From assembly GCA_045106895.1 (NCBI GenBank), contig JBGCFM010000100.1, positions 32,001-96,000 on the forward strand: DNA of 64,000 nucleotides. The letters are read 5' to 3'. How positions within the stretch are numbered: position 1 is the first letter of the stretch; each line of letters starts with the position of its first letter. A program made the translations under genes and the position numbers. Under the pieces are notes generated by a model that saw only the letters and a program-made list of their open reading frames with translations, searched no databases and was not told the DNA's origin. This document shows, piece by piece, positions 26,461 to 62,984 of the stretch. This stretch comes from Polyangiales bacterium (GTDB taxonomy: Bacteria; Myxococcota_A; Polyangia; Polyangiales; Houyiibacteriaceae).

Positions 26461-28278
26461 GTGTCGCAGGAAGACGGAACCCAGCTCGAAGCGATTCGGC
26501 AGACTCTCGCGGCCCTTGGTGTTCAAGACACCCATCTCGCGGAAGCCACCATTGGCGGCCTCCCAAACGGGACCACCAGCGAGGACCTCGAAAACGCCAA
26601 ACTCTCGGATGTTGAAGCTCAGGGAGACGATGAGTTCGTCATCCGCGAGGAGCTCGGGCGAGGCGGCATGGGCATCGTAGAGCTTGCGACACAGCGCGCC
26701 CTCAATCGCGAAGTAGCCATCAAGCGCCTCATCTCGCCGAGCCCGCCACACGTCGCGGCCCTCCTCCGCGAGGCGACCATCGCGGGCCAACTGGAACATC
26801 CAAACATCGTTCCCGTGCACGCACTCGTCACCACCGGCGAGGGCCCAAGCGTCGTGATGAAGCGGGTGTCGGGCACGGACTGGCAGGTCTTGATTCGAGG
26901 CGGCGAGACCCCCCTTGAGACGCACATCGACGTGCTCATTCAGCTCTGCCGCGCCCTCAGTTTTGCCCACAGTCGAGATGTCGTGCACCGAGACATCAAA
27001 CCCGCGAACGTGATGATCGGCGAGTACGGAGAGGTGTACCTCGTTGACTGGGGCCTCGCACGGAGGCTCACGAACGGTAAGCTCAAAAACAAACGCATGG
27101 CTGGAACGCCGGCGTACATGGCGCCGGAGATGGTCAGCGGCAGCATCGACGCGCGCACGGATGTGTACCTTCTGGGGAGCTGCCTGCATGAGGTGCTCGT
27201 TGGCGTGCCTCGACACGTCGCCGAGTCCGTCATGGAGGTCGTCATGGCGGCACAGGACTCAAAGCCGGCGGCCTACCCTCCTTCGGTGCCGGCGGAGCTC
27301 GCCGCCATCTGCAACCGAGCATGCAGTCGTGACCCAGAGCGTCGCTACGCAAGCGCGAGTGACCTAAGACAAGCGCTTCAGAGCTACCTCAAGCACCGCG
27401 CAGCGACAGAACTCGTCCGCGTCGCCGAGGAACGCGTCACAGAGCTCACTGCGCTAGCCCGCGAAAGCGAATATCGGCGAGCCCAACAGCTCTTCCATGA
27501 AGCCCGCTTCGGGTTCGAGCAGGCGCTCGCGGCTTGGCCCGCGTCGGCGCGTGCGCAGCAAGGCCGCGAAGAGTGCCTGAACTGGATGGCGGAGTACGAG
27601 CTGGAGTGCGGCCACGAAAAGAACGCCTCAGCGCTCGTCGATGCGATGAAAGACCCATCGCAGAAGCTCCGGCGAGACCTCGCGGAGCTTCAAACGGAAC
27701 TCAGCGACGAACGACGGCGCGTGCAGAAGCTCAAGCTGGACCGAGATCCCCAGGCCGGCGCAGCGGAACGTAGCCGGGCCACTCTTTGGCTCGCCGTTGC
27801 CATCGTCGTCCTCGTGCTGGCGTTCGGCTCCGTTCGCGCGTTCTTTCCAAACTACGCCACAAGCAAGATACGTCTACCCCTCGTCGCCGCCGTCGTCCTC
27901 GGCATCGTGTCCGCCACGATCTGGCGCTGGCGAAAGACCGCGGCGCTCAATCTGATCAACCGCCGTATCACGCAGGTCGTCCTCTCGACGCTCTCGCTCT
28001 CTTTCCTCAACCGCGTCCTCGACTACATCACAAATCGCGACCCCACCACCACGCTTCACACGGACGCTCTCATCGTCCTCGGCGGCGGTCTCGCGCTGAC
28101 CCCCTTTCACCGCGCCGGCCCAGGACTTGCGCTCCTCGCGGGGCTTGTCGCCTGCGTCGGTGCGCTTCGGCCGGCTTGGCTGGAGGCCATGTTTATCGGT
28201 CTCTCCCTCGCTGTGCCGCTGCTCTTTCTCGGCGTCCGTTTGAGACGCGGAGTCGACCTCAAAGAACCTCGCTTGTAA
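26461..28278 (+). CDS. Hanks-type Ser/Thr protein kinase with C-terminal TMs
   Basis: LGRGGMG, VAIK, HRDIKPAN, DWG and GTPAYMAPE motifs. Confidence 0.95.
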   Translation: MSQEDGTQLEAIRQTLAALGVQDTHLAEATIGGLPNGTTSEDLENAKLSDVEAQGDDEFVIREELGRGGMGIVELATQRALNREVAIKRLISPSPPHVAALLREATIAGQLEHPNIVPVHALVTTGEGPSVVMKRVSGTDWQVLIRGGETPLETHIDVLIQLCRALSFAHSRDVVHRDIKPANVMIGEYGEVYLVDWGLARRLTNGKLKNKRMAGTPAYMAPEMVSGSIDARTDVYLLGSCLHEVLVGVPRHVAESVMEVVMAAQDSKPAAYPPSVPAELAAICNRACSRDPERRYASASDLRQALQSYLKHRAATELVRVAEERVTELTALARESEYRRAQQLFHEARFGFEQALAAWPASARAQQGREECLNWMAEYELECGHEKNASALVDAMKDPSQKLRRDLAELQTELSDERRRVQKLKLDRDPQAGAAERSRATLWLAVAIVVLVLAFGSVRAFFPNYATSKIRLPLVAAVVLGIVSATIWRWRKTAALNLINRRITQVVLSTLSLSFLNRVLDYITNRDPTTTLHTDALIVLGGGLALTPFHRAGPGLALLAGLVACVGALRPAWLEAMFIGLSLAVPLLFLGVRLRRGVDLKEPRL

Positions 28279-49763: not shown

Positions 49764-50882
49764 TTAGAAGCCGAAGAACTCAAAGACGTCGGCGAGCTCT
49801 CGACGCACTTCGTCTTCCGTCACGCCAAACTCTTCCAAGCTGTACTTGTGCTTGCTCTGGTACCGACGCTGTTTTCGTGTCGCTTCGTTCAGGCGCGCTT
49901 GGTACGGCTCGCTCATTGGCAAGGACATCCAGTCGTAGAGGCCTTCGACGACGGCGCGAGGGTCGGAAACGAGGTCGGGATAGCGAACGACGCGAATACG
50001 CTCTTCCGGCAGGTCGCGGACAAGGGCTGCCCCGGCGCGATAGTACGCGTATCCCATATCGATCATTTCTCGGGACGCGTTCGTTGCTTTGCCTAGCTCC
50101 GGCGAATGAGTCTGCCATTTCGCGTGGTACATGCTGGCAAACGACGGCAACGCCTCGAAGGGGTGACGCAGCAAGTAGACGAAACGTGCGTCGGGAAAAC
50201 GCGAGAGCATCGAGCGAACACGCGGCGCGAAGAACACGTTCTTGTTCAGGAAACGTTTGTTACCTCCCACGGAGTACAGATGCTTCTTCACCGTCGCTTC
50301 GTAGAAGTCCATGAAGGCTTCGCGGTCCGCTTCGGGATGCGAATCAAGCCACGTCAGGCGCGTGTAGTTGCGCATGAAAGGGTTGAGTAAGGACAGCGAA
50401 GGTGACTCAAAGCAGTAGACGAAAGTCGTCTCGTCTTCCTCTTCTTTGTCGATGCCCATCGCGTGGATCCCGTCCCACGCGTTGTTGTCGAAGAAGGTCT
50501 TGTTGATCGTCTTCACGCCCTGCTTCCACAGAGGAGCCAGGCGCCCTTCGCCGAGGGCTGCGATGGAACGCTGAATGGACACCGCGCTAAACATCGATTG
50601 GTGGAGTTTGAAGCCTGCGAAGTTCTCTTCATCGAGGCCCATCAAACGATGAAGCATCGTGGTTCCGCTTCGACCGTTCGCGAAGATGAAGACGGGTTGC
50701 TCGACCTTTTGCTCGGCCCAATCCGGAAACGCAAAGTCGTCTACTTTGCGCGCCCCTTCGAGGAGAGTGCGCATTCCCACGAGTCCAGCGGCGTACCCTC
50801 CCCAAGTGAGGGCCCGCCTCGGGGTGAAATTCGCCGCGGCGCTGGTCAACATCTCCGAGAACACTTTTTGATTCACGTACAT
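49764..50882 (-). CDS. PAPS-dependent sulfotransferase
   Basis: 5'-PSB GRSGTTML and 3'-PB LLRHP..ALPS motifs. Confidence 0.85.
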   Translation of the reverse strand: MYVNQKVFSEMLTSAAANFTPRRALTWGGYAAGLVGMRTLLEGARKVDDFAFPDWAEQKVEQPVFIFANGRSGTTMLHRLMGLDEENFAGFKLHQSMFSAVSIQRSIAALGEGRLAPLWKQGVKTINKTFFDNNAWDGIHAMGIDKEEEDETTFVYCFESPSLSLLNPFMRNYTRLTWLDSHPEADREAFMDFYEATVKKHLYSVGGNKRFLNKNVFFAPRVRSMLSRFPDARFVYLLRHPFEALPSFASMYHAKWQTHSPELGKATNASREMIDMGYAYYRAGAALVRDLPEERIRVVRYPDLVSDPRAVVEGLYDWMSLPMSEPYQARLNEATRKQRRYQSKHKYSLEEFGVTEDEVRRELADVFEFFGF

Positions 50883-50948
50883 GGGGTGTCCTCAACCTGT
50901 CCCGCGTCGAGGGGGGCCGCAACCCCGCGGGCGTGCTATCGCTGCCCT

Positions 50949-52229
50949 ATGAAATACGGGTCCTTGTTTCTTGCGTGTGCCGTCGTCGTTGGATGTGGCG
51001 ACGACGACGTTCTGCCAATCCTCGATGCCGGAGCCATCGATGCCGCCAGTCCTGACGTCGGCAACGACGCGGGGAACGACACGGGCCCCGACCCCGACGC
51101 AGGTCCCGTTTGCGAAGCCGGCGAGGTGCCCCTCGGGCGCGGCGAACACTCCATGATCTACGACACGCGCCGCGACCGCCTGGTCGCCTTCGGCGGCACC
51201 GTGGCCTTCCCCGAGATGTGTATGCCGCGCTACGAGTACACCGACGAAATCTGGCTCTTCGATCCAGTCTGCCAAACCTGGACACAGGACACTCCTTCGA
51301 TTGGAGGCCCCGGACGCCGCGCGCGCCAGGCCATGGTGCACGACGCAGCCGGTGACCGTGCCATCGCGTTCGGGGGCCGGACGTACGAAGGCGGCTTCTC
51401 CTTCCGAATTCGCGCCGACATTCATGTCCTCGACCTGGAGACCTTGGCATGGACTGAGCTCATCCCAGCGAACGAAACGCTTCCACCTCGCTCCCACGCC
51501 GCGATGGCCTTCGACGAAACCGGCAATCGTCTCGTCGTGTTCGGCGGCAACCTTGGAGGCGGCGTCTTTAGCCCGGAACTCACCAACGACACGTGGGAGT
51601 ACGACCTGACGACGAACGAGTGGACGGAGCTGACGCCGGCGGAGTCGCCGGGCGCCCGCTACGGCCATGCCTTCACGCAAGTCGGTCGAAAAATGTACGT
51701 GTACGGCGGATCCGGACCCATGGGCAGCTTCGTGAACGACGTGTGGGAGTTCGATCTGGACACGAACGAGTGGACGGGCGTGCGCGGTGGTGGACCCGAC
51801 TCGCCGCCAAGTCGCTTCGGCGCGGCCCTCTTCGACGATGGTGCCGGCGGTCTCCTCATGGCTCTCGGACACGACGCGACGGACCTCGGAAACGTCAACG
51901 ATCTTTGGCACCTCAATCTGGCCACCAACGCTTGGACGGAGCTTCGCCACGGAGATGTACTGAGCGGAGTGGCGAACGGCATCTGCGACTTCCCCGCGGA
52001 CTTCACGACGCCGGACCTCGAGGGTCCTGAGCGCCGCAACTTCCAGGGCTACGCCGCCGGTGGGGGCCATGCCTTCATCAGCTTCGGCAAGACGGACTGC
52101 GGTAACGCCAACGACATGTGGACAATTGATCTCGCTGCGCCGGACTTTGCCCTCGCCGGACCCGCCACAACGAGCGGCGAAGCCTGCAATCGCTCTGGCC
52201 GCGAGGACTGCACCTCGCTCTGCTTCTGA
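50949..52229 (+). CDS. Kelch-repeat beta-propeller lipoprotein
   Basis: VVGC lipobox; repeated R..H..., FGG, NDxW and W motifs. Confidence 0.85.
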   Translation: MKYGSLFLACAVVVGCGDDDVLPILDAGAIDAASPDVGNDAGNDTGPDPDAGPVCEAGEVPLGRGEHSMIYDTRRDRLVAFGGTVAFPEMCMPRYEYTDEIWLFDPVCQTWTQDTPSIGGPGRRARQAMVHDAAGDRAIAFGGRTYEGGFSFRIRADIHVLDLETLAWTELIPANETLPPRSHAAMAFDETGNRLVVFGGNLGGGVFSPELTNDTWEYDLTTNEWTELTPAESPGARYGHAFTQVGRKMYVYGGSGPMGSFVNDVWEFDLDTNEWTGVRGGGPDSPPSRFGAALFDDGAGGLLMALGHDATDLGNVNDLWHLNLATNAWTELRHGDVLSGVANGICDFPADFTTPDLEGPERRNFQGYAAGGGHAFISFGKTDCGNANDMWTIDLAAPDFALAGPATTSGEACNRSGREDCTSLCF

Positions 52230-52356: not shown

Positions 52357-54012
52357 ATGTCCGCCCCACGCCAAGAGCGCCGCAAACGAGAGCGGCATGT
52401 CACTCATCAGAGGGCGTCCGCGGTTCCACCACCTCCAGGGCCTCCACAGCCACGCAAGGCCAAGAAGGCGGCGAAGACCGTCGCCCGCCCCCAGGTTGCC
52501 GCCGACGATGGCATCCTGGCGGACGTTCTTGAACCTACCACCTCGCTCCTCGACGAAGACGAGTGGTCTTTTCGCGAGCCCAAGTGGCGTATCCACGACC
52601 GAACCCATCTCGAGTTCGCCGTGGACTACGAAATCCCCAAGGAACAGAAGAAGGAAACCTACGTCTGGGAGGCGTACTTCTTCATTCCTCGCAGCTTGAA
52701 GGTCAACAGCGACACCTTTGAAAAGCGGCACATCTACCGCGACCTGCAGTCCTACGTGCGCCTCGCCCTCCCGGCGATGCCCCTCGCCGAAGTGGCGGAG
52801 CTTCCCAAGAGCCGAATACAAGCGGCGCTTGCGGACAACACCCTTGGTATTCAGGAACTTCGCCTCTTCGCTTGTCAGCTCCGGCGGTCCGCGTCGGAGG
52901 CTCTTCGCACGATTCGAAAAGACATCGAGCGAGGAGACCTGGACGAACTTGAGCCAACCTGCACATCCTTTGCCGTGCTCCTCCGCGACTTGCTCGCGGC
53001 CTTTCGCGAAGTGATTCCCTCCGCCGTCCACGAAGAGACTCGCATCACCGCGAGCTGGATCGACGAAGACTGTTCACGCATTGTCGAGTCAACGCTGGGG
53101 CAACTCAGTATCCTTCTACGCCGCAGCGGTCACGAGAGACTCGCCGCCACCGTCGCCGGCGGCGCCGTGGAGGAGGCCGTCTATCGGCGAGACAATGACG
53201 TGGGCAGCGTCGGATATGGGGACTCCGACAAACGCGACGTCGAACACCTGGAGTTTCGTCGCCACCTCCTCAAACGATTCAGCGCGTCCGTGCTGTGGCT
53301 GCACCGCGAAGTTTCCGAAGCGGGCAAGTGGACGCTCCAGGCGCTCTACGCCATCGCCGCCAGCGTCGCGATGGCCTTCACCGTCGGTGCCGCCTTCTAC
53401 CACGGCACGCCCGACGCGAACGCATTCAATAATCTCTGGAAGTGGGCGACGATCGTCATCCTGGCGTACGCAGGAAAGGACCGCATCAAGGCGACGCTTC
53501 AGGGCGTGTTTACGAAGTGGGTCCACAAGTGGATGCCAGACCGGCGCTGGCGACTCGAAGACCGGCTCAAGCGCATCACCGTTGGAACGGTCCGCGAACG
53601 CTCGGAGTTCCTCAAGAAGAAGGACATTCCAAACGCGGTTCACACCGCCCGTGTCAGTACACATCAGCACCGCCTCGAAGAACAAGCGCGGCCCGAGCAT
53701 GTCCTGTGGCACAAGAAGGACTGCGCCGTGAATGCCGAAGCAGTTCGCGGCATGGACGAGCGCTACGGCGCCATCACGGAGATCTTTCGCCTCAACCTCC
53801 GTGAGTGGCTTGTTCATACGGACAACGCCAAGCAGCGCGCCGTCTTCGCAGACCCGGATGACCAGCACATCTACACGGCGATGGCGCCACGAGTTTACAA
53901 CATCGCCGTGGTCTACCGTCTCCGCTCGTCCACCGATGACGCCGCACCTTGGCGCCGCGTTCGCGTGATTATCTCACGCAAAGGCATCAAACGAATCGAG
54001 CGCGTTCTGTAG
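52357..54012 (+). CDS. hypothetical membrane protein (two TMs)
   Basis: 551-aa ORF with IHD...EF, YFFIP.SL and AY..KDRIK motifs; function unknown. Confidence 0.7.
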   Translation: MSAPRQERRKRERHVTHQRASAVPPPPGPPQPRKAKKAAKTVARPQVAADDGILADVLEPTTSLLDEDEWSFREPKWRIHDRTHLEFAVDYEIPKEQKKETYVWEAYFFIPRSLKVNSDTFEKRHIYRDLQSYVRLALPAMPLAEVAELPKSRIQAALADNTLGIQELRLFACQLRRSASEALRTIRKDIERGDLDELEPTCTSFAVLLRDLLAAFREVIPSAVHEETRITASWIDEDCSRIVESTLGQLSILLRRSGHERLAATVAGGAVEEAVYRRDNDVGSVGYGDSDKRDVEHLEFRRHLLKRFSASVLWLHREVSEAGKWTLQALYAIAASVAMAFTVGAAFYHGTPDANAFNNLWKWATIVILAYAGKDRIKATLQGVFTKWVHKWMPDRRWRLEDRLKRITVGTVRERSEFLKKKDIPNAVHTARVSTHQHRLEEQARPEHVLWHKKDCAVNAEAVRGMDERYGAITEIFRLNLREWLVHTDNAKQRAVFADPDDQHIYTAMAPRVYNIAVVYRLRSSTDDAAPWRRVRVIISRKGIKRIERVL

Positions 54013-56017
54013 TCTGTGTCGCTGTGCTGGTCGCACTCGCGCGTGTCTCGCTCATCGCCAGCGCCCAGAGCGGGAAGTAACGACGATAGAGGCGGTAGTC
54101 CAAGAGGGCCGTTCGGAAGAACACGCCGGTCATCATTGGCGCCGCCCAGTCACCATTCTCGGCCTGCAGAGAGCGCAACGCGCTGGCGGCGGATTCAAAG
54201 GACGAGGCGAAGGCTTGTCCACCTTCGACGAGCGTCATCGCTGCCCAAGCTGTTTGTGTTGGATGAGACGCGTCACCTTCGATGTAGCGATCTTCAAGAC
54301 AGCTGCGCCACGACTCACTGAAGGAGCCGTCGTCACGCTGCTTCGCCGCGACAAAGGAACATGCCTTTTGAATCGCGGGGTCGTCTGGGGTCGCACCCGC
54401 TGCGACCAGACCGCGTACGCCGAAGAGCGTCCCGTAGAGGTAGGCCACGCCCCAAGCTCCGTCCCAGCTTCCGTCGGCGTTTTGTGAGGCACGTAGGTAC
54501 TTCTCCGCACGCTCGATGGCTGCGTCGATGTTCGCGCGCATCATCGCTGGGTAACGACTACGAACCGCAGCGAGGGCCGCCAGGTTCGAAGCCGTGCACT
54601 CGAAGTAGGACAGCTCCGTCATCGAGTCGCCGAACATCTCCGCGGGATTCATCCACTCAAGCCCGGCGCGGACCTTTCGCGACTCATAGGAACCAAAACC
54701 TCCGTCGAAATTCTGCGCCTGCAAAAGGAAGCGTACTCCGGCTTCGATGCGCTGTGGCTTCGGCGTGTATAGCTCCTTCGGCGCTTCGAGGAACGCAAGG
54801 AGCGCCTCTGCCGTGCAGTCGCTGACAGGCCAGCCGTGCCAAATGCCGGCGAAGCAGAAGCCGCCTGTGGGGTCGACGCGATCTTGAGCCGCGTACGCGC
54901 TCACGTCCCCGCCGCTCGGCTTCATGATCTGTTGCGTCTCAAGCCACGCGAGGCCGCGAAGGAGGGCTTCGTCGACGTCGCGTCGTGCGTTTCCTTGCAG
55001 GTTCGCGCGCGCTTCGGAAAGCGCCTGCAGAGCGAATGAGGTGTCCCAGGTCGCGCTACGAGCACCGGTGACACGAAGACCTTCTTCGTCGTCTTCCCAG
55101 ACCCACCCTTTGACCGCCGCGTCGTCTTCAACGTCGCCGCCAAAACGGGCGAGCTGCGCGTGGAGGTCCGAGTCGTTTGGATCCATCGCGTGAAGTGTGA
55201 GCGCAAAGAGCAGCCCATTCACCGGCGAGAGACACGTGTAGTCTGTGCTTCGAAGCTCAAAACGAATGCGTTTGACGAAGCGCTTGAGGAGCCAGCCACG
55301 AAGGCGCGGTGAGTGGAGCCGTTCCGCGACGTTGACCGCCGCGTACACTCCCTTGAGTATCGTGCCCGGCGGCGCCCAGAGATCATTCTCGCGAAGCCGG
55401 CCTCGCGACCCCTGGAAATCTAAGGTCTCGAAACGCCGCCCTGGATAGAGTTCACTCCGCAACTCGTGGGTGAGGTTCGTGATCGGCGCCTGGACCTTCA
55501 GCGAACGAACGCTGGCCATGCCCATGTAGATCAAGCGCGTGTGGCAGTAGTAGTTCGCCGGGTGCAAAGGCACCTTCTCCGGCAGGAGCCAGGCTTCTGG
55601 AGGGACCGCGTTGACGCCTTCCCAGCGGTAGAGGCCTGCGATGGAGAGCCACACCTTGCCCCAGCTCGGGATCGTCAAGGTGTCCTCTCGCTCGAAGAAC
55701 TGCCGGGCGCCAGAGAGCAATGGGTCTGACGCGTCCAGACCGCTCATTCGCGCGGCGACATAGCAGAGCGCGGTCACGAAGAGCGATGCTTCTCCGTGAC
55801 GGTGCATGCCCCAGCAGCCGCTGCCGTCCTCAAGCTGCATCGCCGCCAGCTGCGTGATGAGCCCTGTCCTACGTCGCGGCGGAATCTCCCGTCCCATCGC
55901 ATGCATCGCGATGACATATTGCGCCGCGAGCATGGGATTCCACACCACTTCGCCTTCCCAGTGTTCTCCTTCGTTTCGCAACGAAACAAGGTGAAGGGCC
56001 GCGGTATGAAGCGTCAT
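53987..56017 (-). CDS. osc: 2,3-oxidosqualene cyclase
   Basis: VSDCTAE catalytic motif (not DXDD), YYCHTR, WGK.WL and QW repeats (QNADGSW, QAENGDW). Confidence 0.95.
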   Translation of the reverse strand: MTLHTAALHLVSLRNEGEHWEGEVVWNPMLAAQYVIAMHAMGREIPPRRRTGLITQLAAMQLEDGSGCWGMHRHGEASLFVTALCYVAARMSGLDASDPLLSGARQFFEREDTLTIPSWGKVWLSIAGLYRWEGVNAVPPEAWLLPEKVPLHPANYYCHTRLIYMGMASVRSLKVQAPITNLTHELRSELYPGRRFETLDFQGSRGRLRENDLWAPPGTILKGVYAAVNVAERLHSPRLRGWLLKRFVKRIRFELRSTDYTCLSPVNGLLFALTLHAMDPNDSDLHAQLARFGGDVEDDAAVKGWVWEDDEEGLRVTGARSATWDTSFALQALSEARANLQGNARRDVDEALLRGLAWLETQQIMKPSGGDVSAYAAQDRVDPTGGFCFAGIWHGWPVSDCTAEALLAFLEAPKELYTPKPQRIEAGVRFLLQAQNFDGGFGSYESRKVRAGLEWMNPAEMFGDSMTELSYFECTASNLAALAAVRSRYPAMMRANIDAAIERAEKYLRASQNADGSWDGAWGVAYLYGTLFGVRGLVAAGATPDDPAIQKACSFVAAKQRDDGSFSESWRSCLEDRYIEGDASHPTQTAWAAMTLVEGGQAFASSFESAASALRSLQAENGDWAAPMMTGVFFRTALLDYRLYRRYFPLWALAMSETRASATSTATQTTERARFV

Positions 56018-57331
56018 CTAAACGGCCTTTTGGCGAGCCGTGGTGAGCAACTCTCGAGCGACGTCCAGTTTGACCTGGCCGGCGTCGACAAGCTGTGCCG
56101 CGATGAGGTCCACCTCGTGGTGTTCCGCACCGGCGGCGAGCGCAACGCTGCGTGCGTGGAGCGTCATATGGCCTCGTTGAATGCCTTCAGTCGCCAACGC
56201 GCGAAGCGCACCCATGTTCTGTGCGAGACCCACCGTGGCCATGACCATTCCAAGCTCCGCGGCGGAACCTACGTCGAGGATCTTTCGCAAAACACGAATC
56301 GTTGGGTGCACTTGAGTGCTTCCGCCAACGACACCGACGGCCATGGGCAGCTCGATGCTCCCCATGAGGTAACCATCTTCGCGCCACCACTTGGTGAGAG
56401 AAGTGTAGCGGCCGTCACGAGCGGCGTACGCGTGCGCGCCCGCTTCAACACTTCGCCAGTCGTTGCCCGTGGCAATGGCCACAGCATCGATGCCGTTCAT
56501 CACGCCCTTGTTGTGTGTCGCCGCACGATAAGGGTCGACTGCCGCAAATCGGTATGCCTGCACGATGCCCTCGGCCACCTCGGCGCCGGAGTAGCCGTTG
56601 CCCGCCAAGTGAATCTCTGGAACGCGACAGGAGGCGCGCGCACAGCGGCGGTCCGCCAGGTTCGAGAGGATGCGCAAGTTCACGCGCCCCTTCGTCAGCT
56701 CTTCAATGCGACCCGCAACGCCTTCGGCCATCGCGTTGACCGCGTTGGCGCCCATCGCTTCGCCGCAGTCGACGAGGAGATGAACGACGAGCATTGGGAA
56801 CTCGTCATCGAAGCGCCGGACCTCGATGTCACGTGCACCGCCGCCGCGCTTCTTCATGTTCGGATGAACACGGTCAGCGAGAGTAAGCAGCTCTTCCTTC
56901 GCGTCCTCCAAAGCCTTCACAGCGGCATCGACGTCGGGAAGGTCGAGGACCTGGACCTGACCGATCATCATCGATGGATCGGCAGAACCCGTGAATCCGC
57001 CGGCTTTGCGAACGGTCCGCGCCATGTTCGAGACCGCCGCGACAACACTCGGCTCCTCGACGACCATCGGAATGACGTAGTCACGTCCGTTGAGGTGGAA
57101 GTTCAGACCGAGTCCAATGGGGAGTCCGAAGACGCCCACACAGTTCTCAACCATCTTGTCCGCGCGGCCCACGCCAAGACGTCCACCGTCGCGGAGGACG
57201 TCGAGGTCTTCGCTGGTGAGACCGAAGCGCTTACCGAGTTCGGCGTGACGCTCGCCCACTTCGAGGCGGTAGAAACCGGGGATTCGCGACTCACGTCGCC
57301 GACTGGAGGAGTTGATCGTTTCTTCGGTCAT
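56018..57331 (-). CDS. mvaA: HMG-CoA reductase, class II
   Basis: MVEN, EEPSVVAA, EAMGAN, ILSNL, YRAATHNKG and GIQRGHM motifs. Confidence 0.95.
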   Translation of the reverse strand: MTEETINSSSRRRESRIPGFYRLEVGERHAELGKRFGLTSEDLDVLRDGGRLGVGRADKMVENCVGVFGLPIGLGLNFHLNGRDYVIPMVVEEPSVVAAVSNMARTVRKAGGFTGSADPSMMIGQVQVLDLPDVDAAVKALEDAKEELLTLADRVHPNMKKRGGGARDIEVRRFDDEFPMLVVHLLVDCGEAMGANAVNAMAEGVAGRIEELTKGRVNLRILSNLADRRCARASCRVPEIHLAGNGYSGAEVAEGIVQAYRFAAVDPYRAATHNKGVMNGIDAVAIATGNDWRSVEAGAHAYAARDGRYTSLTKWWREDGYLMGSIELPMAVGVVGGSTQVHPTIRVLRKILDVGSAAELGMVMATVGLAQNMGALRALATEGIQRGHMTLHARSVALAAGAEHHEVDLIAAQLVDAGQVKLDVARELLTTARQKAV

Positions 57332-58476
57332 GCCGACACCTGGTCTTCCGTGGACTTTTTGGGCTTCGAGCTGAGCTTCGTGAGCCCTTTTTCGTCGAGG
57401 TATTCCTGCCATTTACGAATCGTCAGATCTTGGAAAGACCGAACGACGGGGTTGATCTCTGCGAGGGGTTCGTCCCAGAAACGCTCCCAACCCCTTTGTT
57501 CTTCCTCAACAGCGACAGCATCTTCACCAAGGAGTGGTTTGATGGTCAGTTCATTGGCGATTTGCATGAAAGGACGCATCAACGCCTTCGGGATTCGCGC
57601 GGAAGTGAAAGGAACCTTGAAGCTCTTGAAGCAGAAAAGGAAGAACGCGCGTGATGTGCGTTCGTCGATGGGCAGCACGAAGAGCCAATGCTTGATCTGG
57701 TCGTCCGTGTTCGAGAACTGGTAGGGGTACTGGTAACCGAGCTTCATGCTGCTCGTGTCGATGGACTTCCGGTCGATGAAGAGACCGCTGAAGCGGCCCG
57801 TTCCAACCTTCGTGTCGTACTCAAGATGTACCGTGTCCCCGACGGTCTCGTAGCTGAGGAGTTCCGCGTCGGTGAAGGGACGGAAACGTCGATGCAGATA
57901 GGCGTGGGTAAAGTCGCTCACGTTGTCGAGAATCATCGAGTGGTGTGCTTGCCAGGTGGCATCCACGGGAACGCAGGTCCAAGCGTCCGGTCCCTCGAGC
58001 TCTGGAATGCTCGGCATCGGTACGCTTTCTGCGCGCTCCGCGTCACCGAAGAACACCCAAATCAGCCCGTACTTCAGCTTCACCGGCAGGTGAGGAACCT
58101 TGAACTTGGGAAACTTCCGCCCGAAGAGCGAGTGCGGAATGTCTACAACGCGCCCTTCCCCATCGTAGGTCCAGCCATGGTAGGGACAGACAAGGTTGCA
58201 TCCATCGACATGCCCCGTGGAGAGCCGCAGCTGGCGGTGAGCGCAGCGATTTTCGATGGCACGAACGACGTCATCTTCGCCGCGAAAGACAGCGATGGAG
58301 CGCTTCCAAAACACCACCTCTTTGACTTCGCCCTTGGGCAGAGCCTTCTCGTACTCAACGGCGTACCAGTAGTTTGGGTTCATCCCCGCGGAGCGGACCT
58401 TTTGGCGAACGTTCTTTGACTCCTCAAAGGACGGCGGAGGCGTAGCGGATCGAACGTAGGGGTTTCGCTTGCTCAT
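57328..58476 (-). CDS. Rieske non-heme iron oxygenase, probable sterol C-4 methyl oxidase (SdmA-like)
   Basis: CAH...CPYHGW Rieske motif and DNVSDFTHAYLH iron site; SdmA identity inferred from context. Confidence 0.75.
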   Translation of the reverse strand: MSKRNPYVRSATPPPSFEESKNVRQKVRSAGMNPNYWYAVEYEKALPKGEVKEVVFWKRSIAVFRGEDDVVRAIENRCAHRQLRLSTGHVDGCNLVCPYHGWTYDGEGRVVDIPHSLFGRKFPKFKVPHLPVKLKYGLIWVFFGDAERAESVPMPSIPELEGPDAWTCVPVDATWQAHHSMILDNVSDFTHAYLHRRFRPFTDAELLSYETVGDTVHLEYDTKVGTGRFSGLFIDRKSIDTSSMKLGYQYPYQFSNTDDQIKHWLFVLPIDERTSRAFFLFCFKSFKVPFTSARIPKALMRPFMQIANELTIKPLLGEDAVAVEEEQRGWERFWDEPLAEINPVVRSFQDLTIRKWQEYLDEKGLTKLSSKPKKSTEDQVSA

Positions 58477-58487
58477 GACGGGTGTTC

Positions 58488-59588
58488 CTAAGCGTGAATC
58501 GTTACGTGAGGGACGCTCGCCGATGGCGAGTTCGTCGGCTGTGGTGCACGTGCGTTCTTGTTCGTGATGCCGCCTCGACCCCAGTGGAACGCGTAGGCGT
58601 CGGCGAAGGCGTCTTCAATGGAGCCCGGAACGAACCCGAGCTCGTTCTTCGCTTTGGAGGTGTCCGCGTGACGCATCAGACGCAGGCGGCGGATCGCCCC
58701 AGGTGTGAGCAGCTGTGGCGCCTTGGGTCGGAAGCGCGTCATGAAGAAGCTCGTCGCTTCGGCGATGGGAAGCATCAACTGGTTCGGTACGCGGAAGCGC
58801 GGGCGAGGCTGACCGGTGATCTTCTCGAAGATCGCGAAGATGTCGTCGAGCGTCATGAACTTCGTCGCGATGATGTACTTCTGACCCGAGCGTCCCTTGT
58901 CGAGGGCCAGCAGGTGACCTTGAACGAGGTCCTTCGCGGCCACGAACTCGAAGCCGCCATTGACGTAGGCGTTCAACTCCCCGTTGGCGAAACGACAGAG
59001 CGTCCGACCCATGCGGGAAGGCAAGTAGTCATGGCCACCCACCACGGCGCAGCTCGTCACGATGAGAGCGTCCTGTCCTTCAGCGACGGCCTTCAAGACT
59101 TCGTGCTCCTGGAGCACCTTGCTGCGCTCGTAGGGCATCGCGCGGTGGTAGGGGTAGAAACCCATGGACTCGTCCGCCGGGAGGTCCGTCTGGTCGAGGT
59201 CGTATCCAACGGCGGAGAATGACCCCGTCACGATGGTCCGGCGCACGTTGTTCTCGCGTGCGATGCGCAGCAAGTGACGGGTGCCGATCACGTTCGTCTC
59301 GTAGATGGTGCGCCGATGCGCAGCGTCTCCATCAATAGTGGAGACCATCGATGCGACGTGAATGATGTCCCGGACACCCTTGATAGCAGGCGTGAGCGTG
59401 GAGGGGTCGCGAAGGTCGCCGTACGCTTCTTCAACGGGCAATGAACGGATGGCTTCGTTGTTCTCTCCGCGGCGCAGAAGAACGCGAACGCGCTTTCCTT
59501 CTTCGACAAGCTGGTGGACGACGTTCGCACCGACGTGGCCGGCGCCACCTGTCACGAGAATCGGAGCATCTTTTTGGGGTTGGGTCAT
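58488..59588 (-). CDS. extended SDR (3beta-HSD/decarboxylase-like), probable SdmB
   Basis: TGGAGHVG and YERSK motifs; adjacent to the Rieske gene inside the sterol operon. Confidence 0.75.
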   Translation of the reverse strand: MTQPQKDAPILVTGGAGHVGANVVHQLVEEGKRVRVLLRRGENNEAIRSLPVEEAYGDLRDPSTLTPAIKGVRDIIHVASMVSTIDGDAAHRRTIYETNVIGTRHLLRIARENNVRRTIVTGSFSAVGYDLDQTDLPADESMGFYPYHRAMPYERSKVLQEHEVLKAVAEGQDALIVTSCAVVGGHDYLPSRMGRTLCRFANGELNAYVNGGFEFVAAKDLVQGHLLALDKGRSGQKYIIATKFMTLDDIFAIFEKITGQPRPRFRVPNQLMLPIAEATSFFMTRFRPKAPQLLTPGAIRRLRLMRHADTSKAKNELGFVPGSIEDAFADAYAFHWGRGGITNKNARAPQPTNSPSASVPHVTIHA

Positions 59589-59603: not shown

Positions 59604-62600
59604 TCAGTTCGCGCTCGCGCTGCGCACTTGTTCTTGCGCAGGCAGTTTCCATAGCTGGTCGTAGTGCGCACGAAGCGCAGCGTCGTCTCCGACGCGCGCC
59701 ATGCACTCACCGATAAGTCGTTCCACTTCTTCTCGGGCAATCTTCACCGGCGCGCCGGCGACGAACATAGCGTCGTTGCCCCGCCCGTGTACGAGTGTCC
59801 GAACGGCCATCCAAAGTGGCAGCAAGCAGAACAGCCGCACGGACGTCTGCTCTTTCGGAATCGTCAGCGTGTATTCAAGGGCGCGGTCGAGGTGCTCTTG
59901 TGCTCGGTCAAAGAGGGGTGCGACGGCGGCGTGGGCCGCGTCTCTCTTGTTCTCGTCGACGAGGTTCTGAATCGTCAGTCCGGCGGCTGCACAGGAAGTG
60001 CGGGGCACGTAAGAGACGTGCCGTGTTCGGTCGTCGGTCACATCTTTGAGAATGTTGACGAGCTGAAGACCGAGTCCAAACGCTTCTGCGTTCTTCCGCA
60101 GGTCGAGTTCCAACGACGCGCTCTCCCGCCCGAACTCTTCAACGAAGAGGTCCGTCAACATGTGACCGACGGTACCCGCGACGAAGAAGCAGTAACGCTC
60201 AAGGTCTTCAACGGTATGCATCGCGTTGAACCCATCGGCTTCGTTGCCGCGATGCGAGTAAAGCTGCATGCCCCGAACCATCTCTTCAATCCAGCGGGTG
60301 GCCTTGCGCTGCATCTCGCTTGGGATGGACCGATAGACACGCATCACGACGGAGAGATGGCGCGCCAAATCGGCTTCCGTTTCGTCGCCGCGGACCCCTT
60401 CGAAGAGGCGCTCGAAGCGTTTGACTTCGGCGCTCTCGGGCGATGCCTGCAGAGCGCTGAGGAACACGTGGTAGCGCTCGTCGCGTTCACTCATGGTGAA
60501 GAACGCGTTGTCTTCGATGGTGTCGGCGATACGGCAGAGAAGGTAACCGCACATTACTGCGGAGCGAAGGTCTCCAGGGAGCATCTCAATGGGGCGCGCG
60601 AAGCTTCGTGAGACCGCCAGGAGCGCGTCGTGGCAGTAAGCGTGGTCTGCGGCACTGGCGCGCCCTGCTCTCTGCTTTCCAGGAGCCTGAAGACGCGAAG
60701 TGCGCATGTCGCGGTAAAGCCGAAGCGCCTCACCAGCCAACTCGTCCAGTGAGTCTTCGCTAGAAAGCGACACAAGACACGCCGCGGCGGCGTCGACGTA
60801 GGGCGCGCCGGTTCGCAAAATGGCGCGGGCAACAAGAGTGGTCGTCCGCAAGTCACCGATGCGACCGGTGTCTTGCTGAGCGGCGGCCACGTGCCGAAAG
60901 GCACGGCGAATGCGCGGATGAAAGACCGGCATGCCTGCCGTGACAAGGCATTCGGCGGCGAGAGCTGTTCGTCGTAGATCTCCGAAAGACCCGCTCGCCT
61001 CTTGCTCGCGTTCGAGGCGCTCGCGCAAAGGAATCAGCGCCGACTGCAAGAGACTGGCGCGAAGTCCGGGGAGTTCGGTCGCGACCTCGGCGAGAACGAG
61101 GACGCTCTTGCTCGTTGCTTGGAGGTCGAGGTCAGCCTTCGAGGCAACCTGCGCTGCGACGCGGCGGGCGACACTCTGCGCGAGCGCAACCGTTTCGCCG
61201 AGCGCGGGCCCTCCAATGGAGCGCCGAAGTCGCGTCTCTTCGTCCAGCGCATCACTCGACTCACGCACTCGCGCGATGAGAGCGTCTACATCGACGTCGA
61301 CGGATGCAGGCGCCGGGGCGCGTCCTCGTTCCGGCGCAGCGGGGCGGATTCGAAGGCCCGCAAGGGGATGCGCCGCGGAGCTCTTGTCACGAACGCGTTG
61401 GCGCAACGCCGTGGGCAAAAGGCTCGCCGCCGGCCACTGCGCGAACTCCATGAAGGTGCCGAGTTTGTGGGCTTTCCCGGAAGTGATCTGCCCGGCAGCG
61501 GCGCCCGCCGCCACGCGCACAAACGCAGCGCCAAACTGACCGAGTCGAAGCTCGTCGCCGCCGAGGATGCGCATCGTTCGGTCTCGCTCGGCGCGGCTAT
61601 TTCGCCACGTCGAGTACATCGAGTCGCGGATGGCCACGGCGGCCTCGTCGTCGCGATTAAAGACGTGGTGGAGCGCGTTTGCGAGTAGCTCCGGCGTGTA
61701 GCTGCGGGGCTCACGCTTGGCCGCGTAGCTCGCGGCGTCGTCACTCTCAACGAGGGCGGCGGCGTCCTTGAGCCCGATGGTGATCCCGCTGGCGGTCAGC
61801 GGATGGTAAAAGCCCACGGCGTCACCAACGAGAGCGACGTGTCCTTCTCCGTACGCCGCGCGCGGCGAGAAGCGATTGCACGCCCAGATGAGGCGCTGGG
61901 TCTCAAGAGCGCGCCTGAATGCGCCGCGAAGAGAGACAGGGAAGCGATCGCCGAAGGCTTCCCAGAGGTAGCGCGCGTCCCGCCGTGAACCCGGGTAGTC
62001 GACGGGCACGTCGATGCAGGCGCGTACTCGCCCTGGAGCGATGCGGTAAAGAAGAACCGGACCGGGACCGCCGAGCAACACATGGCCGAACCCCTCGAAG
62101 GGAAGTTCAACGTCCTCGAGCTCAAGCCCCGCCATGTAGGAGACGATGTCGGCGTTGGTGGGTCCGTAGAGGCTCTTGCGAACAACGGACGAGCGACCGT
62201 CAGCACCGACGATGCGCCCCGCATGTACCACGGTCTCGGCCTCACCCTTGCGCTGAAGCGTCACGTTGTGACCCTCAATCTTGGTGACTCGGACCCCTTC
62301 GATGTACTCGAGGCCAGGAATCTCACTCGCCTGTGCGCGTAGACCCGTGACCAGCTCCCCATGCTCACACGTGAAGCCGAGCTGGCGATCCGTATACTCA
62401 AGACGAATTGGATCCGTGCCATCGTCCGGGAACACCGCGAACCCCTCACACGCCAGGTGACCTGCCGTGATGCCGTGGGGAGTCAGCTCAAGTTTCGCCA
62501 GGGCGGCGGCGCCTGCGGGGTGAATCCACTCACCAGCGAAGCGAAAGGACGCTTTGGGATTGGCCTCAACCAGGAGAACGCTCAGGCCGCGTCGGGCAAA

Positions 62601-62672
62601 ACCAGCGGCCGCAGCGACACCAGCAGGGCCGGCTCCGGCGACGAGGACATCGTAGTGTTGGGACGTGCTCAT
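59604..62672 (-). CDS. squalene epoxidase - squalene synthase fusion protein
   Basis: N-terminal GAGPAG, GEWIHPAG, GADG and GDA...HPLTASG; C-terminal VSRSF, RIADTIED, YCFFVAGTVG and LQLVNILKD. Confidence 0.88.
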   Translation of the reverse strand: MSTSQHYDVLVAGAGPAGVAAAAGFARRGLSVLLVEANPKASFRFAGEWIHPAGAAALAKLELTPHGITAGHLACEGFAVFPDDGTDPIRLEYTDRQLGFTCEHGELVTGLRAQASEIPGLEYIEGVRVTKIEGHNVTLQRKGEAETVVHAGRIVGADGRSSVVRKSLYGPTNADIVSYMAGLELEDVELPFEGFGHVLLGGPGPVLLYRIAPGRVRACIDVPVDYPGSRRDARYLWEAFGDRFPVSLRGAFRRALETQRLIWACNRFSPRAAYGEGHVALVGDAVGFYHPLTASGITIGLKDAAALVESDDAASYAAKREPRSYTPELLANALHHVFNRDDEAAVAIRDSMYSTWRNSRAERDRTMRILGGDELRLGQFGAAFVRVAAGAAAGQITSGKAHKLGTFMEFAQWPAASLLPTALRQRVRDKSSAAHPLAGLRIRPAAPERGRAPAPASVDVDVDALIARVRESSDALDEETRLRRSIGGPALGETVALAQSVARRVAAQVASKADLDLQATSKSVLVLAEVATELPGLRASLLQSALIPLRERLEREQEASGSFGDLRRTALAAECLVTAGMPVFHPRIRRAFRHVAAAQQDTGRIGDLRTTTLVARAILRTGAPYVDAAAACLVSLSSEDSLDELAGEALRLYRDMRTSRLQAPGKQRAGRASAADHAYCHDALLAVSRSFARPIEMLPGDLRSAVMCGYLLCRIADTIEDNAFFTMSERDERYHVFLSALQASPESAEVKRFERLFEGVRGDETEADLARHLSVVMRVYRSIPSEMQRKATRWIEEMVRGMQLYSHRGNEADGFNAMHTVEDLERYCFFVAGTVGHMLTDLFVEEFGRESASLELDLRKNAEAFGLGLQLVNILKDVTDDRTRHVSYVPRTSCAAAGLTIQNLVDENKRDAAHAAVAPLFDRAQEHLDRALEYTLTIPKEQTSVRLFCLLPLWMAVRTLVHGRGNDAMFVAGAPVKIAREEVERLIGECMARVGDDAALRAHYDQLWKLPAQEQVRSASAN

Positions 62673-62825: not shown

Positions 62826-62931
62826 GTTCCAAAAACGGCACCCGGTTTCCCGTAATTCCTAATAGTTTCGTTACGTTATCGAAATACTGTGTTCGAAGCC
62901 GGGCCCTCTGGCGCACGATCGTGCTTAACGG

Positions 62932-62965
62932 AAAAAGGCCATTCCCGACTGGGAACGGCCTCTTC
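62932..62965 (-). terminator. rho-independent terminator of the OmpA-family gene
   Basis: Minus strand reads GAGGCCGTTCCC-AGTC-GGGAATGGCCTTTTT. Confidence 0.8.
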
Positions 62966-62984
62966 ACGTCAAAAAGGGGAGACG

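Follow-up and report, generated by a model that had tools for sequence, protein, structure and literature searches.

The 64,000-nucleotide (nt) stretch of a Polyangiales bacterium genome analysed here (GenBank assembly GCA_045106895.1, contig JBGCFM010000100.1, positions 32,001 to 96,000), referred to below as the window, carries on its reverse strand five consecutive genes, the first of which encodes a 1022-residue fusion protein (the window protein). From N-terminus to C-terminus, this protein consists of a predicted squalene epoxidase dependent on flavin adenine dinucleotide (FAD), a shortened relic of an oxidosqualene cyclase domain and a predicted squalene synthase (SQS) of the single-enzyme, eukaryotic type. 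The fusion gene is followed by genes for an SdmB-like protein, an SdmA-like protein, HMG-CoA reductase and an oxidosqualene cyclase, in this order (Table 1), with gaps of 15, 11 and 0 nt plus one apparent overlap, the 15 nt being those between the stop codon of the fusion and the start of the SdmB-like gene. We propose, with a probability of roughly 80%, that the product of the fusion gene is a three-part enzyme with two activities, which would take part in bacterial sterol synthesis by converting farnesyl diphosphate (FPP) into 2,3-oxidosqualene, both activities and their products being read from the sequence.

Table 1. Features of the fusion gene and its operon, in window coordinates
Feature	Residues	Position	Strand	Evidence
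Fusion gene: squalene epoxidase, cyclase relic, squalene synthase	1-1022	59604..62672	-	Open reading frame, translation, Pfam
Predicted FAD-dependent squalene epoxidase domain	1-430	61383..62672	-	PF08491, PF01494, human SQLE
GAGPAG, dinucleotide-binding GxGxxG of the FAD fold	13-18	62619..62636	-	Regular expression, 117/121 family proteins
GEWIHPAG	47-54	62511..62534	-	Aligned to GEFLQPGG of human SQLE; G47, E48, H51 invariant
GDAVGFYHPLTASG	283-296	61785..61826	-	Aligned to GDAYNMRHPLTGGG of human SQLE; regular expression, 115/121
Middle region, shortened relic of the oxidosqualene cyclase alpha/alpha-toroid domain	431-675	60648..61382	-	A3 against 1gsz, 1.5e-11; hhalign against A2
Stretch aligning to the long-form domain	491-668	60669..61202	-	Middle residues 61-238 against Cystobacter fuscus middle residues 148-370
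Predicted single-enzyme eukaryote-type squalene synthase domain	676-1022	59607..60647	-	PF00494, 4.7e-43; TIGR01559 best NCBIfam
DTIED, first Asp-rich motif	717-721	60510..60524	-	Human SQS D80-D84; regular expression, 119/121
Tyr827 in ERYCFFVAG	827	60192..60194	-	Human SQS Tyr171; invariant; motif 121/121
DVTDD, second Asp-rich motif	877-881	60030..60044	-	Human D219-D223; 121/121
Phe948 in FCLLP	948	59829..59831	-	Human SQS Phe288; nearly invariant; 119/121
SdmB-like NAD(P)-dependent sterol C-4 demethylation protein		58488..59588	-	NF052578, 9e-86 (below the 600-bit cut-off); Pfam Epimerase, 3Beta_HSD
SdmA-like Rieske 4-methylsterol monooxygenase		57328..58476	-	NF052579, 8.9e-126 (below cut-off); Pfam Rieske, VanA_C
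HMG-CoA reductase (mevalonate pathway)		56018..57412	-	PF00368, 1.6e-108
Oxidosqualene cyclase, last gene of the operon		53987..56017	-	TIGR03463, 5.7e-189 (below cut-off); TIGR01787, 437.8 bits (cut-off 322.7)
Hairpin and U-run after the upstream OmpA-family gene, likely terminator		62925..62970	-	-29.7 kcal/mol, z -7.75, 0/200 shuffles as good

A single gene for two enzyme domains

The list of open reading frames (ORFs) and the translation give one frame of 1022 codons plus stop, with an ATG start and zero internal stops. An initial annotation of this DNA had described such an unbroken 1022-residue ORF, together with the motifs GEWIHPAG, GDAVGFYHPLTASG and DTIED, and all of them were located in the window protein. 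In Pfam, the protein matches SE (PF08491, residues 155-372, 4.4e-25), FAD_binding_3 (PF01494, residues 7-308, 3e-17) and SQS_PSY (PF00494, residues 686-979, 4.7e-43), with 88.7, 63.3 and 148.2 bits against gathering scores of 20.1, 22 and 26 bits, respectively, which is far above chance. This domain search, which the initial annotation had recommended, puts the epoxidase at the N-terminus and the synthase at the C-terminus, and Pfam, PDB and motif evidence agree with its naming of the halves as an FAD monooxygenase and a single-enzyme squalene synthase. Its picture of a two-part protein, however, has to be abandoned since a third, cyclase-derived domain sits between the two enzymes.

The fusion is real. 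Logan contigs from two runs (X1 and X2), which are short and may stem from the window's own source sample, bridge both domain junctions at a likeness of at least 99% without indels or joints, the junction near nt 61385 being spanned by X2 record 14 and X1 record 6, and that near nt 60647 by X1 record 2. An in-frame, stop-free fusion is also found in 52 of the 80 loci fetched from other assemblies, complete genomes included. The orthologue L016, taken from a different assembly, is exactly as long as the window protein and differs from it at 96 of 1022 residues; the ratio of non-synonymous to synonymous substitution rates (dN/dS) in this comparison, where dS exceeds 1 and is saturated, is 0.036 for the epoxidase part, 0.078 for the middle and 0.031 for the synthase part. 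Purifying selection acts on all three parts of the fusion.

The epoxidase and synthase halves

The N-terminal half (residues 1-430) is predicted with confidence to be a squalene epoxidase. The best solved relative of residues 5-352 is human squalene monooxygenase (6c6n, 2.4e-29 by HMMER), other flavoproteins being weaker, with VisC as the next-best match (4.7e-7) and further monooxygenases at E values of at least 1e-5. The epoxidase motifs GxGxxG, GE(F/W)xxPxG, DG and GD....HPLTxxG are all present, at residues 13-18, 47-54, 158-159 and 283-296, and G13, G15, G18, E36, R44, G47, E48, H51, D158, G159, G283, D284, H290 and P291 are invariant in 51 aligned sequences, so that both the Glu closing strand 2 (E36) and the DG pair (D158-G159) are kept in all 51. 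The echo of eukaryotic epoxidases that the initial annotation had heard in these motifs stands, in that human 6c6n does align, except that the eukaryotic motif that it quoted, GELLQPGG, is one letter off the GEFLQPGG of 6c6n. In the genome from which the window comes (7.7 Mb, 96% complete), the fusion gene is the sole match to PF08491.

The C-terminal half (residues 676-1022) is likewise identified, by profile ranking and motifs, as a single-enzyme squalene synthase of eukaryotic type. TIGR01559 leads the NCBIfam models (1.3e-33), followed by HpnD (6.9e-19), HpnC (3.1e-14) and CrtB (7e-13), and the PDB matches are to SQS 7wgh (1e-19) and human SQS (3.9e-15), as against 1e-8 for CrtM and 6e-4 for HpnC. 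When residue pairs are counted on the printed alignment to human SQS (1ezf/3asx), the SRSF flap (residues 688-691) falls on S51-F54, and the partners of the other motifs are those given in Table 1. The equivalents of SRSF, DTIED, Tyr171, DVTDD and Phe288 are what we take to be the catalytic hallmarks, given the roles of these residues in rat and human SQS, and the FCxxP motif around the Phe288 equivalent is presumably typical of squalene synthases. D717, T718, E720, D721, Y827, D877 and D881 are invariant in 51 aligned sequences, and each of the five hallmarks, SRSF included, occurs in 119 to 121 of the 121 family proteins.

PF00494 has two matches in the window genome, the fusion gene and one HpnD/CrtB-like gene, and the C-terminal half of the fusion is the only SQS-type domain there. 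The second gene (L096:8772-9731, on contig C98) matches HpnD at 9.4e-60 and CrtB at 1.6e-55, both below cut-off. Its neighbours encode a metallopeptidase, a tRNA synthetase of lysyl/asparaginyl type and a methyltransferase, and HpnC, HpnE, CrtI or any other terpenoid gene is absent among the neighbours that were scanned.

The middle domain

The stretch between the two enzymes comes in three size classes among 121 family proteins: 24-141 residues in 13 of them (short form), 233-294 in 31 (medium form, with 245 in the window protein) and 317-528 in 77 (long form). Three profiles were compared: A2, from 29 long-form middles; A3, from 20 medium-form middles, i.e. those of the window's own class; and A4, from 12 epoxidase-cyclase fusions. 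The A2 profile matches squalene-hopene cyclase 1gsz (2.2e-21) and human lanosterol synthase 1w6k (4.3e-21), PF13243 being detected in 19 of its 29 members, and A3 also matches 1gsz (Table 1). By hhalign, A3 aligns to columns 140-331 of the long form (probability 99.6%, E 8e-24), and A2 aligns to A4 from just past DCTAE to the cyclase C-terminus (99.3%, E 1.8e-20). The window's middle region thus lacks the initial ~140 columns of the long domain, keeps about its second half and cannot close a toroid.

Taken by itself, the window's middle region yields zero Pfam cyclase matches, even at E up to 1. As a triterpene cyclase it would be badly incomplete: only ~180 residues align, in place of two complete toroid domains (PF13249 and PF13243), and the catalytic acid motif (DxDD or the Asp of DCTAE) is missing, the homologous stretch starting just after DCTAE. 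There are no invariant acidic residues in A2 or A3, the invariants being only L196 and L303 in the former and P6, R159, R160, R186, A187 and L206 in the latter. Among the 1.84 billion representatives searched, the middle domain is matched over its full length and in one stretch solely in fusions of ~1100-1200 residues or their fragments, while ordinary cyclases match through repeats only. On this profile evidence, the middle domain is what remains of the C-terminal third of an oxidosqualene cyclase, a non-catalytic relic specific to the family and shortened further in the window's clade. Two other descriptions were tried and rejected: a low-complexity linker is ruled out by the profile homology to cyclases and by the dN/dS of 0.078, and collinearity with the N-terminal cyclase domain, hinted at by a weak BLASTP match (E 0.033), gives way to the profile comparison, which puts the domain at the cyclase C-terminus.

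Distribution of the fusion and of its split form

A word-indexed protein search returned 175 relatives among 7999 scored candidates, 120 of which were listed; PF08491 and PF00494 are both present in all 120, and those with an organism name come from Myxococcota. When one genome per prokaryote species was scanned, 490 relatives emerged. Their best 80, the source of the loci compared here, are almost all labelled Myxococcota or its older names, the nearest among them being a locus in a Polyangiales metagenome-assembled genome, whose best tblastn segment is 91% identical. In the ESM Atlas, both domains occur together in a cluster of 60 members. Across the phylum, 93 of 401 genomes have matches with E values no higher than 1e-10, of which the weaker are other flavoproteins. 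The fusion is common in Myxococcota: the architecture is a widespread rather than singular, undescribed variant built of known kinds, which has been sitting unremarked in public databases. The full-text literature searched (the supplements of PMC8237579 and subscription papers being outside its reach) does not describe an epoxidase-synthase fusion, and none is described in the accessible parts of PMC10152446, PMC12146001, PMC8237579, PMC7306690, PMC12414744 and PMC7766473.

In the window's own family, the fusion is found in three genomes (G220, G240 and G330), and separate adjacent genes are found in eight genomes of one genus (g2: G017, G029, G155, G200, G205, G320, G335 and G350; loci L014, L082 and others). 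In this split form, the synthase gene begins, in another frame, within the last 11 nt of the epoxidase gene, and the middle domain is absent. The initial annotation had pointed out that the two steps are fused in reverse order; the enzyme of the later step is indeed N-terminal, but this order just mirrors that of the genes in the split form, where the epoxidase gene precedes the synthase gene. A tree of the synthase domain (FastTree, 91 rows, rooted at the midpoint with no outgroup, so that the direction, fusion or fission, is unreadable) groups the split forms in one clade of 19 rows (support 100) and clusters the medium forms, with a long form as their neighbour (support 97). Where a locus extends over 15 kb or more, a homologue of oxidosqualene cyclase lies nearby in 13/13 medium, 19/19 long, 2/3 short and 8/8 split forms, and in 0/2 stand-alone synthases; the window's gene order recurs in medium-class loci.

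In one C. fuscus assembly, the long-form gene is annotated as two pieces of 529 and 650 residues (MFY0575675.1 and MFY0575674.1). The breaks in long forms (these records, L034 and L043) fall inside or near the middle domain and may be sequencing errors or real fission.

Operon and genome context

Homologues of the epoxidase, the oxidosqualene cyclase, SdmA and SdmB are clustered in the window, as expected of a bacterial sterol gene cluster. The operon's cyclase is the sole PF13243 match in the genome and, therefore, no squalene-hopene cyclase competes for squalene. Three matches to the ERG4/ERG24 sterol-reductase family lie elsewhere in the genome. The HMG-CoA reductase ORF as listed starts at 57412, 85 nt inside the SdmA-like gene, which ends at 57328, and a later start codon is likely.

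The strong hairpin after the OmpA-family gene suggests that the fusion gene, which starts ~250 nt downstream, heads its own transcription unit. A promoter scan gave 0 sites, and a terminator scan gave 5 (shuffle mean 8.9), all within coding sequence, the hairpin at 62925-62970 being unlisted. In the upstream 600 nt, Rfam returned only a chance miRNA match (E 0.35).

Beyond the operon, a 551-residue ORF with no Pfam family (52357-54012, forward strand) converges on the cyclase gene and overlaps its end at 53987-54012. A sulfotransferase gene (49764-50882, reverse strand), ~3 kb beyond the cyclase gene, is a candidate for a role in sterol modification. The window also encodes a Kelch-repeat protein (50463-52229, forward strand), a caspase-domain protein with PPC domains (17685-20369, reverse strand) and a Ser/Thr protein kinase (26461-28278, forward strand).

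Proposed mechanism and alternatives

Conversion of FPP to oxidosqualene by one polypeptide is the natural reading of the locus because genes for SdmB, SdmA, HMG-CoA reductase and oxidosqualene cyclase follow, and because the fusion holds the only squalene epoxidase domain and the only SQS-type domain of the genome. The window protein is very probably bifunctional. The pathway would then run as follows: (i) residues 676-1022 would condense two FPP from the mevalonate pathway into presqualene diphosphate and, with NAD(P)H, reduce it to squalene, (ii) the FAD domain (residues 1-430) would use O2 to turn squalene into 2,3-oxidosqualene and (iii) the operon's cyclase would turn oxidosqualene into a protosterol, which SdmA and SdmB would demethylate at C-4. 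The 245 residues in the middle may be kept under selection as a structured spacer or scaffold. With the fusion, two enzymes that share a water-insoluble intermediate would be made in a one-to-one ratio and kept in one place, which could bring a kinetic benefit. The fusion would also be free of cost here, since the genome lacks a squalene-hopene cyclase that could compete for squalene. Channelling of squalene within the fusion, which the initial annotation had raised, is plausible. Linkers of 24-528 residues and the existence of a split clade, however, suggest that neither a fixed tunnel nor a set inter-domain geometry is required for the pathway, and conservation of the relic domain suggests that the spacer does more than tether.

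Several observations count against this reading and have to be set beside it. The operon has no evident source of electrons for the epoxidase, cytochrome P450 reductase being the donor for eukaryotic epoxidases. The synthase half scores 116.6 bits with TIGR01559, under the equivalog cut-off of 286.75, which is a threshold for annotation rather than a biochemical trait. SdmA, SdmB and osq_cycl, too, are best hits that stay under the equivalog or subfamily cut-offs of their models. Because of these scores, the naming of the synthase, SdmA, SdmB and osq_cycl rests on best hits and motifs. C. fuscus, which has a long-form gene, has two other PF00494 genes, which leaves the synthase half without a genetic anchor in that species. 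No transmembrane segment is predicted in the window protein (maximum 19-residue Kyte-Doolittle mean 1.42), no RNA runs are listed with the gene, and no enzyme assay of any family member was found.

Several rival readings can be set beside the proposed one. That the long frame is an artefact of assembly or frameshift, joining neighbouring genes, has next to no credence left: one indel could join a pair such as the separate genes of relatives, with their 11-nt overlap, and the frame is broken in a few assemblies (one in-frame stop in L034, a frame change in L043, two annotated pieces in one C. fuscus assembly), but a conserved domain of 245 residues between the halves is not what read-through of an overlap would leave, 52 of 80 independent loci are in-frame and stop-free, complete genomes among them, and the contigs of two runs bridge the junctions without indels. 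It is very unlikely that one enzyme half has lost catalysis and acts only as a scaffold or regulator, while the activity itself comes from elsewhere. Domain fusions often retain pseudo-enzyme halves, and an epoxidase-like domain with altered motifs (GGSVAG, GADCRP and GEAVG...PQLT) is fused to a cyclase in L097 and L069; in the window protein, by contrast, none of the checked hallmarks is altered and all are invariant across 51 sequences, both halves have a dN/dS of 0.03-0.04, and the genome has no other squalene epoxidase domain or SQS-type domain to take over. Slightly less likely still is that the C-terminal domain yields another head-to-head product, be it presqualene diphosphate only (as HpnD), dehydrosqualene (as CrtM) or phytoene. 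PF00494 takes in all of these enzymes and the TIGR01559 score is under its cut-off, but true squalene synthases lead widely (1e-19, against 1e-8 for CrtM and 6e-4 for HpnC, and 1.3e-33, against 6.9e-19 for HpnD), FCxxP is conserved in the family, the domain shares its polypeptide with a squalene epoxidase and its operon with an oxidosqualene cyclase, and the single other PF00494 gene of the genome is too few for an HpnC and HpnD pair.

A different question is whether the middle domain is more than a spacer. It might be an active module that binds squalene or oxidosqualene, or that pairs with the operon's cyclase as cyclase subunits do, assembling a complex of synthase, epoxidase and cyclase. 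Consistent with this are its derivation from the cyclase portion running from just after DCTAE to the C-terminus, purifying selection on it (dN/dS 0.078), the confinement of full-length single matches to these fusions or their fragments, and Sandaracinaceae-type loci, which carry an epoxidase-cyclase fusion gene directly upstream of the long-form gene. We nonetheless consider an active module doubtful: 13 of 121 family proteins make do with linkers of just 24-141 residues, a whole clade has separate genes and no such domain, and the window's version, without its first ~140 columns, cannot close a toroid and has zero conserved polar residues. A more elaborate scenario looks similarly improbable, namely that the relic is a docking or hand-over module in a complex of synthase, epoxidase and cyclase at the membrane surface, taking FPP to protosterol without releasing squalene or oxidosqualene, and that the family arose from a duplicated epoxidase-cyclase fusion, the cyclase of which was cut to its C-terminal third and joined to a downstream synthase gene. 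The bifunctional enzyme with a relic as its spacer remains our preferred reading.

Implications

All sterol synthesis passes through squalene synthase and squalene epoxidase, which in eukaryotes are separate membrane-anchored drug targets. A natural fusion of the two without a predicted transmembrane segment could be a ready-made module for producing oxidosqualene-derived triterpenoids in bacteria, and it offers a tractable system for asking whether squalene passes directly between active sites. The range of forms within the family – overlapping genes, direct fusions, fusions with a short or a long relic – amounts to a natural experiment on the roles of the fusion and of the relic. Since myxobacterial sterol genes are central to arguments for a bacterial origin of eukaryotic sterol synthesis, the fusion should be reckoned with wherever a tree or an annotation has one of these proteins down as 'the epoxidase' or 'the synthase'. 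Public names are inconsistent: for the C. fuscus and S. amylolyticus proteins described below they give one enzyme or the other, never both, and the C. ferrugineus member is a 'Squalene synthase'.

Comparison with known systems

Human squalene monooxygenase (6C6N) and human SQS (1EZF, 3VJ8) belong to the best solved relatives of the two halves (2.4e-29 and ~4e-15), and the hallmark motifs align. The human enzymes are separate proteins anchored in the membrane of the endoplasmic reticulum, unlike the window fusion, which has no predicted transmembrane segment. HpnCDE, the three-protein squalene route of many bacteria, resembles the window system in supplying squalene for polycyclic triterpenoids. 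It does so with three proteins, whereas the window has one SQS-type domain, which scores far better as squalene synthase than as HpnC or HpnD, in a genome with one other PF00494 gene.

In the split forms of genus g2, both enzymes are 44-53% identical to the window's halves. The window's order is kept, with HMG-CoA reductase and cyclase genes following; what differs is that there are two genes in different frames, overlapping by 11 nt, and no middle domain.

Fusions of another kind have been reported, i.e. MsbE, a fused squalene epoxidase-oxidosqualene cyclase (Mar Drugs 2020, PMC7074536), and 'fused SMO/OSC homologs' (Nat Commun 2023, PMC10070321), as far as the accessible parts of these papers go. 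In MsbE-type fusions, too, the epoxidase is N-terminal to a cyclase fold, and the window's middle is homologous to their C-terminal end. They have, however, a complete, catalytically equipped two-domain cyclase and no synthase, whereas the window protein has a fragment without the catalytic Asp, followed by a synthase. In Sandaracinaceae-type loci, the direct upstream neighbour of the long-form gene is a gene for an epoxidase-cyclase fusion of ~1150-1180 residues with an unaltered VSDCTAE (L097:3925-7458 in genome G355; also L043, L044, L047-L049, L053, L058, L066, L068, L069, L076 and L092), and the epoxidase-like domain of these fusions is 33-41% identical to the window's epoxidase. The idea that all of them are degenerate was rejected: the altered motifs GGSVAG, GADCRP and GEAVG...PQLT are those of L097 and L069 only, and the consensus of 12 keeps GxGxxG, GEWLHP and GD..HHPLT, with GATGR where the window protein has GADGR. 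At L097:29-2728, an 899-residue frame joins an HMG-CoA reductase domain (14-388) to an SdmB-like epimerase/3beta-HSD domain (537-765) and may be either a further fusion or two genes merged by the ORF call.

Close counterparts in named organisms are the long-form protein of Cystobacter fuscus DSM 2262 (D187_003106; EPX59202.1/WP_002623688.1; UniProt S9PAC1, 'Squalene monooxygenase'), of 1163 residues, and that of Sandaracinus amylolyticus (AKF09140.1; UniProt A0A0F6W7B2, 'Squalene synthase'), of 1146 residues. Their parts follow one another as in the window protein (epoxidase, cyclase-like middle, synthase), and their genes adjoin an oxidosqualene cyclase gene, as in the window. Their middle is the long form, with 358-382 residues as opposed to 245 in the window, where the first part is absent, and their loci are without the window's order of fusion, SdmB, SdmA, HMG-CoA reductase and oxidosqualene cyclase. 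The clusters of these two proteins are represented by P0073 and P0077, whose E values against the window protein are 1.6e-226 and 2.5e-225, with 46% identity in the best local BLASTP alignment, which covers 43% and 50% of the query, respectively. The accessible part of Wei et al. (2016; PMC4919349) lists D187_003106 as the squalene epoxidase of C. fuscus, makes no mention of a fusion, and reports cycloartenol in C. fuscus as well as lanosterol and zymosterol in S. amylolyticus. A complete C. fuscus genome contains just one strong PF08491 match, the fusion (6.6e-19; a second match reaches 9.1e-4), and this, in a species that produces sterols, makes an active epoxidase half very likely.

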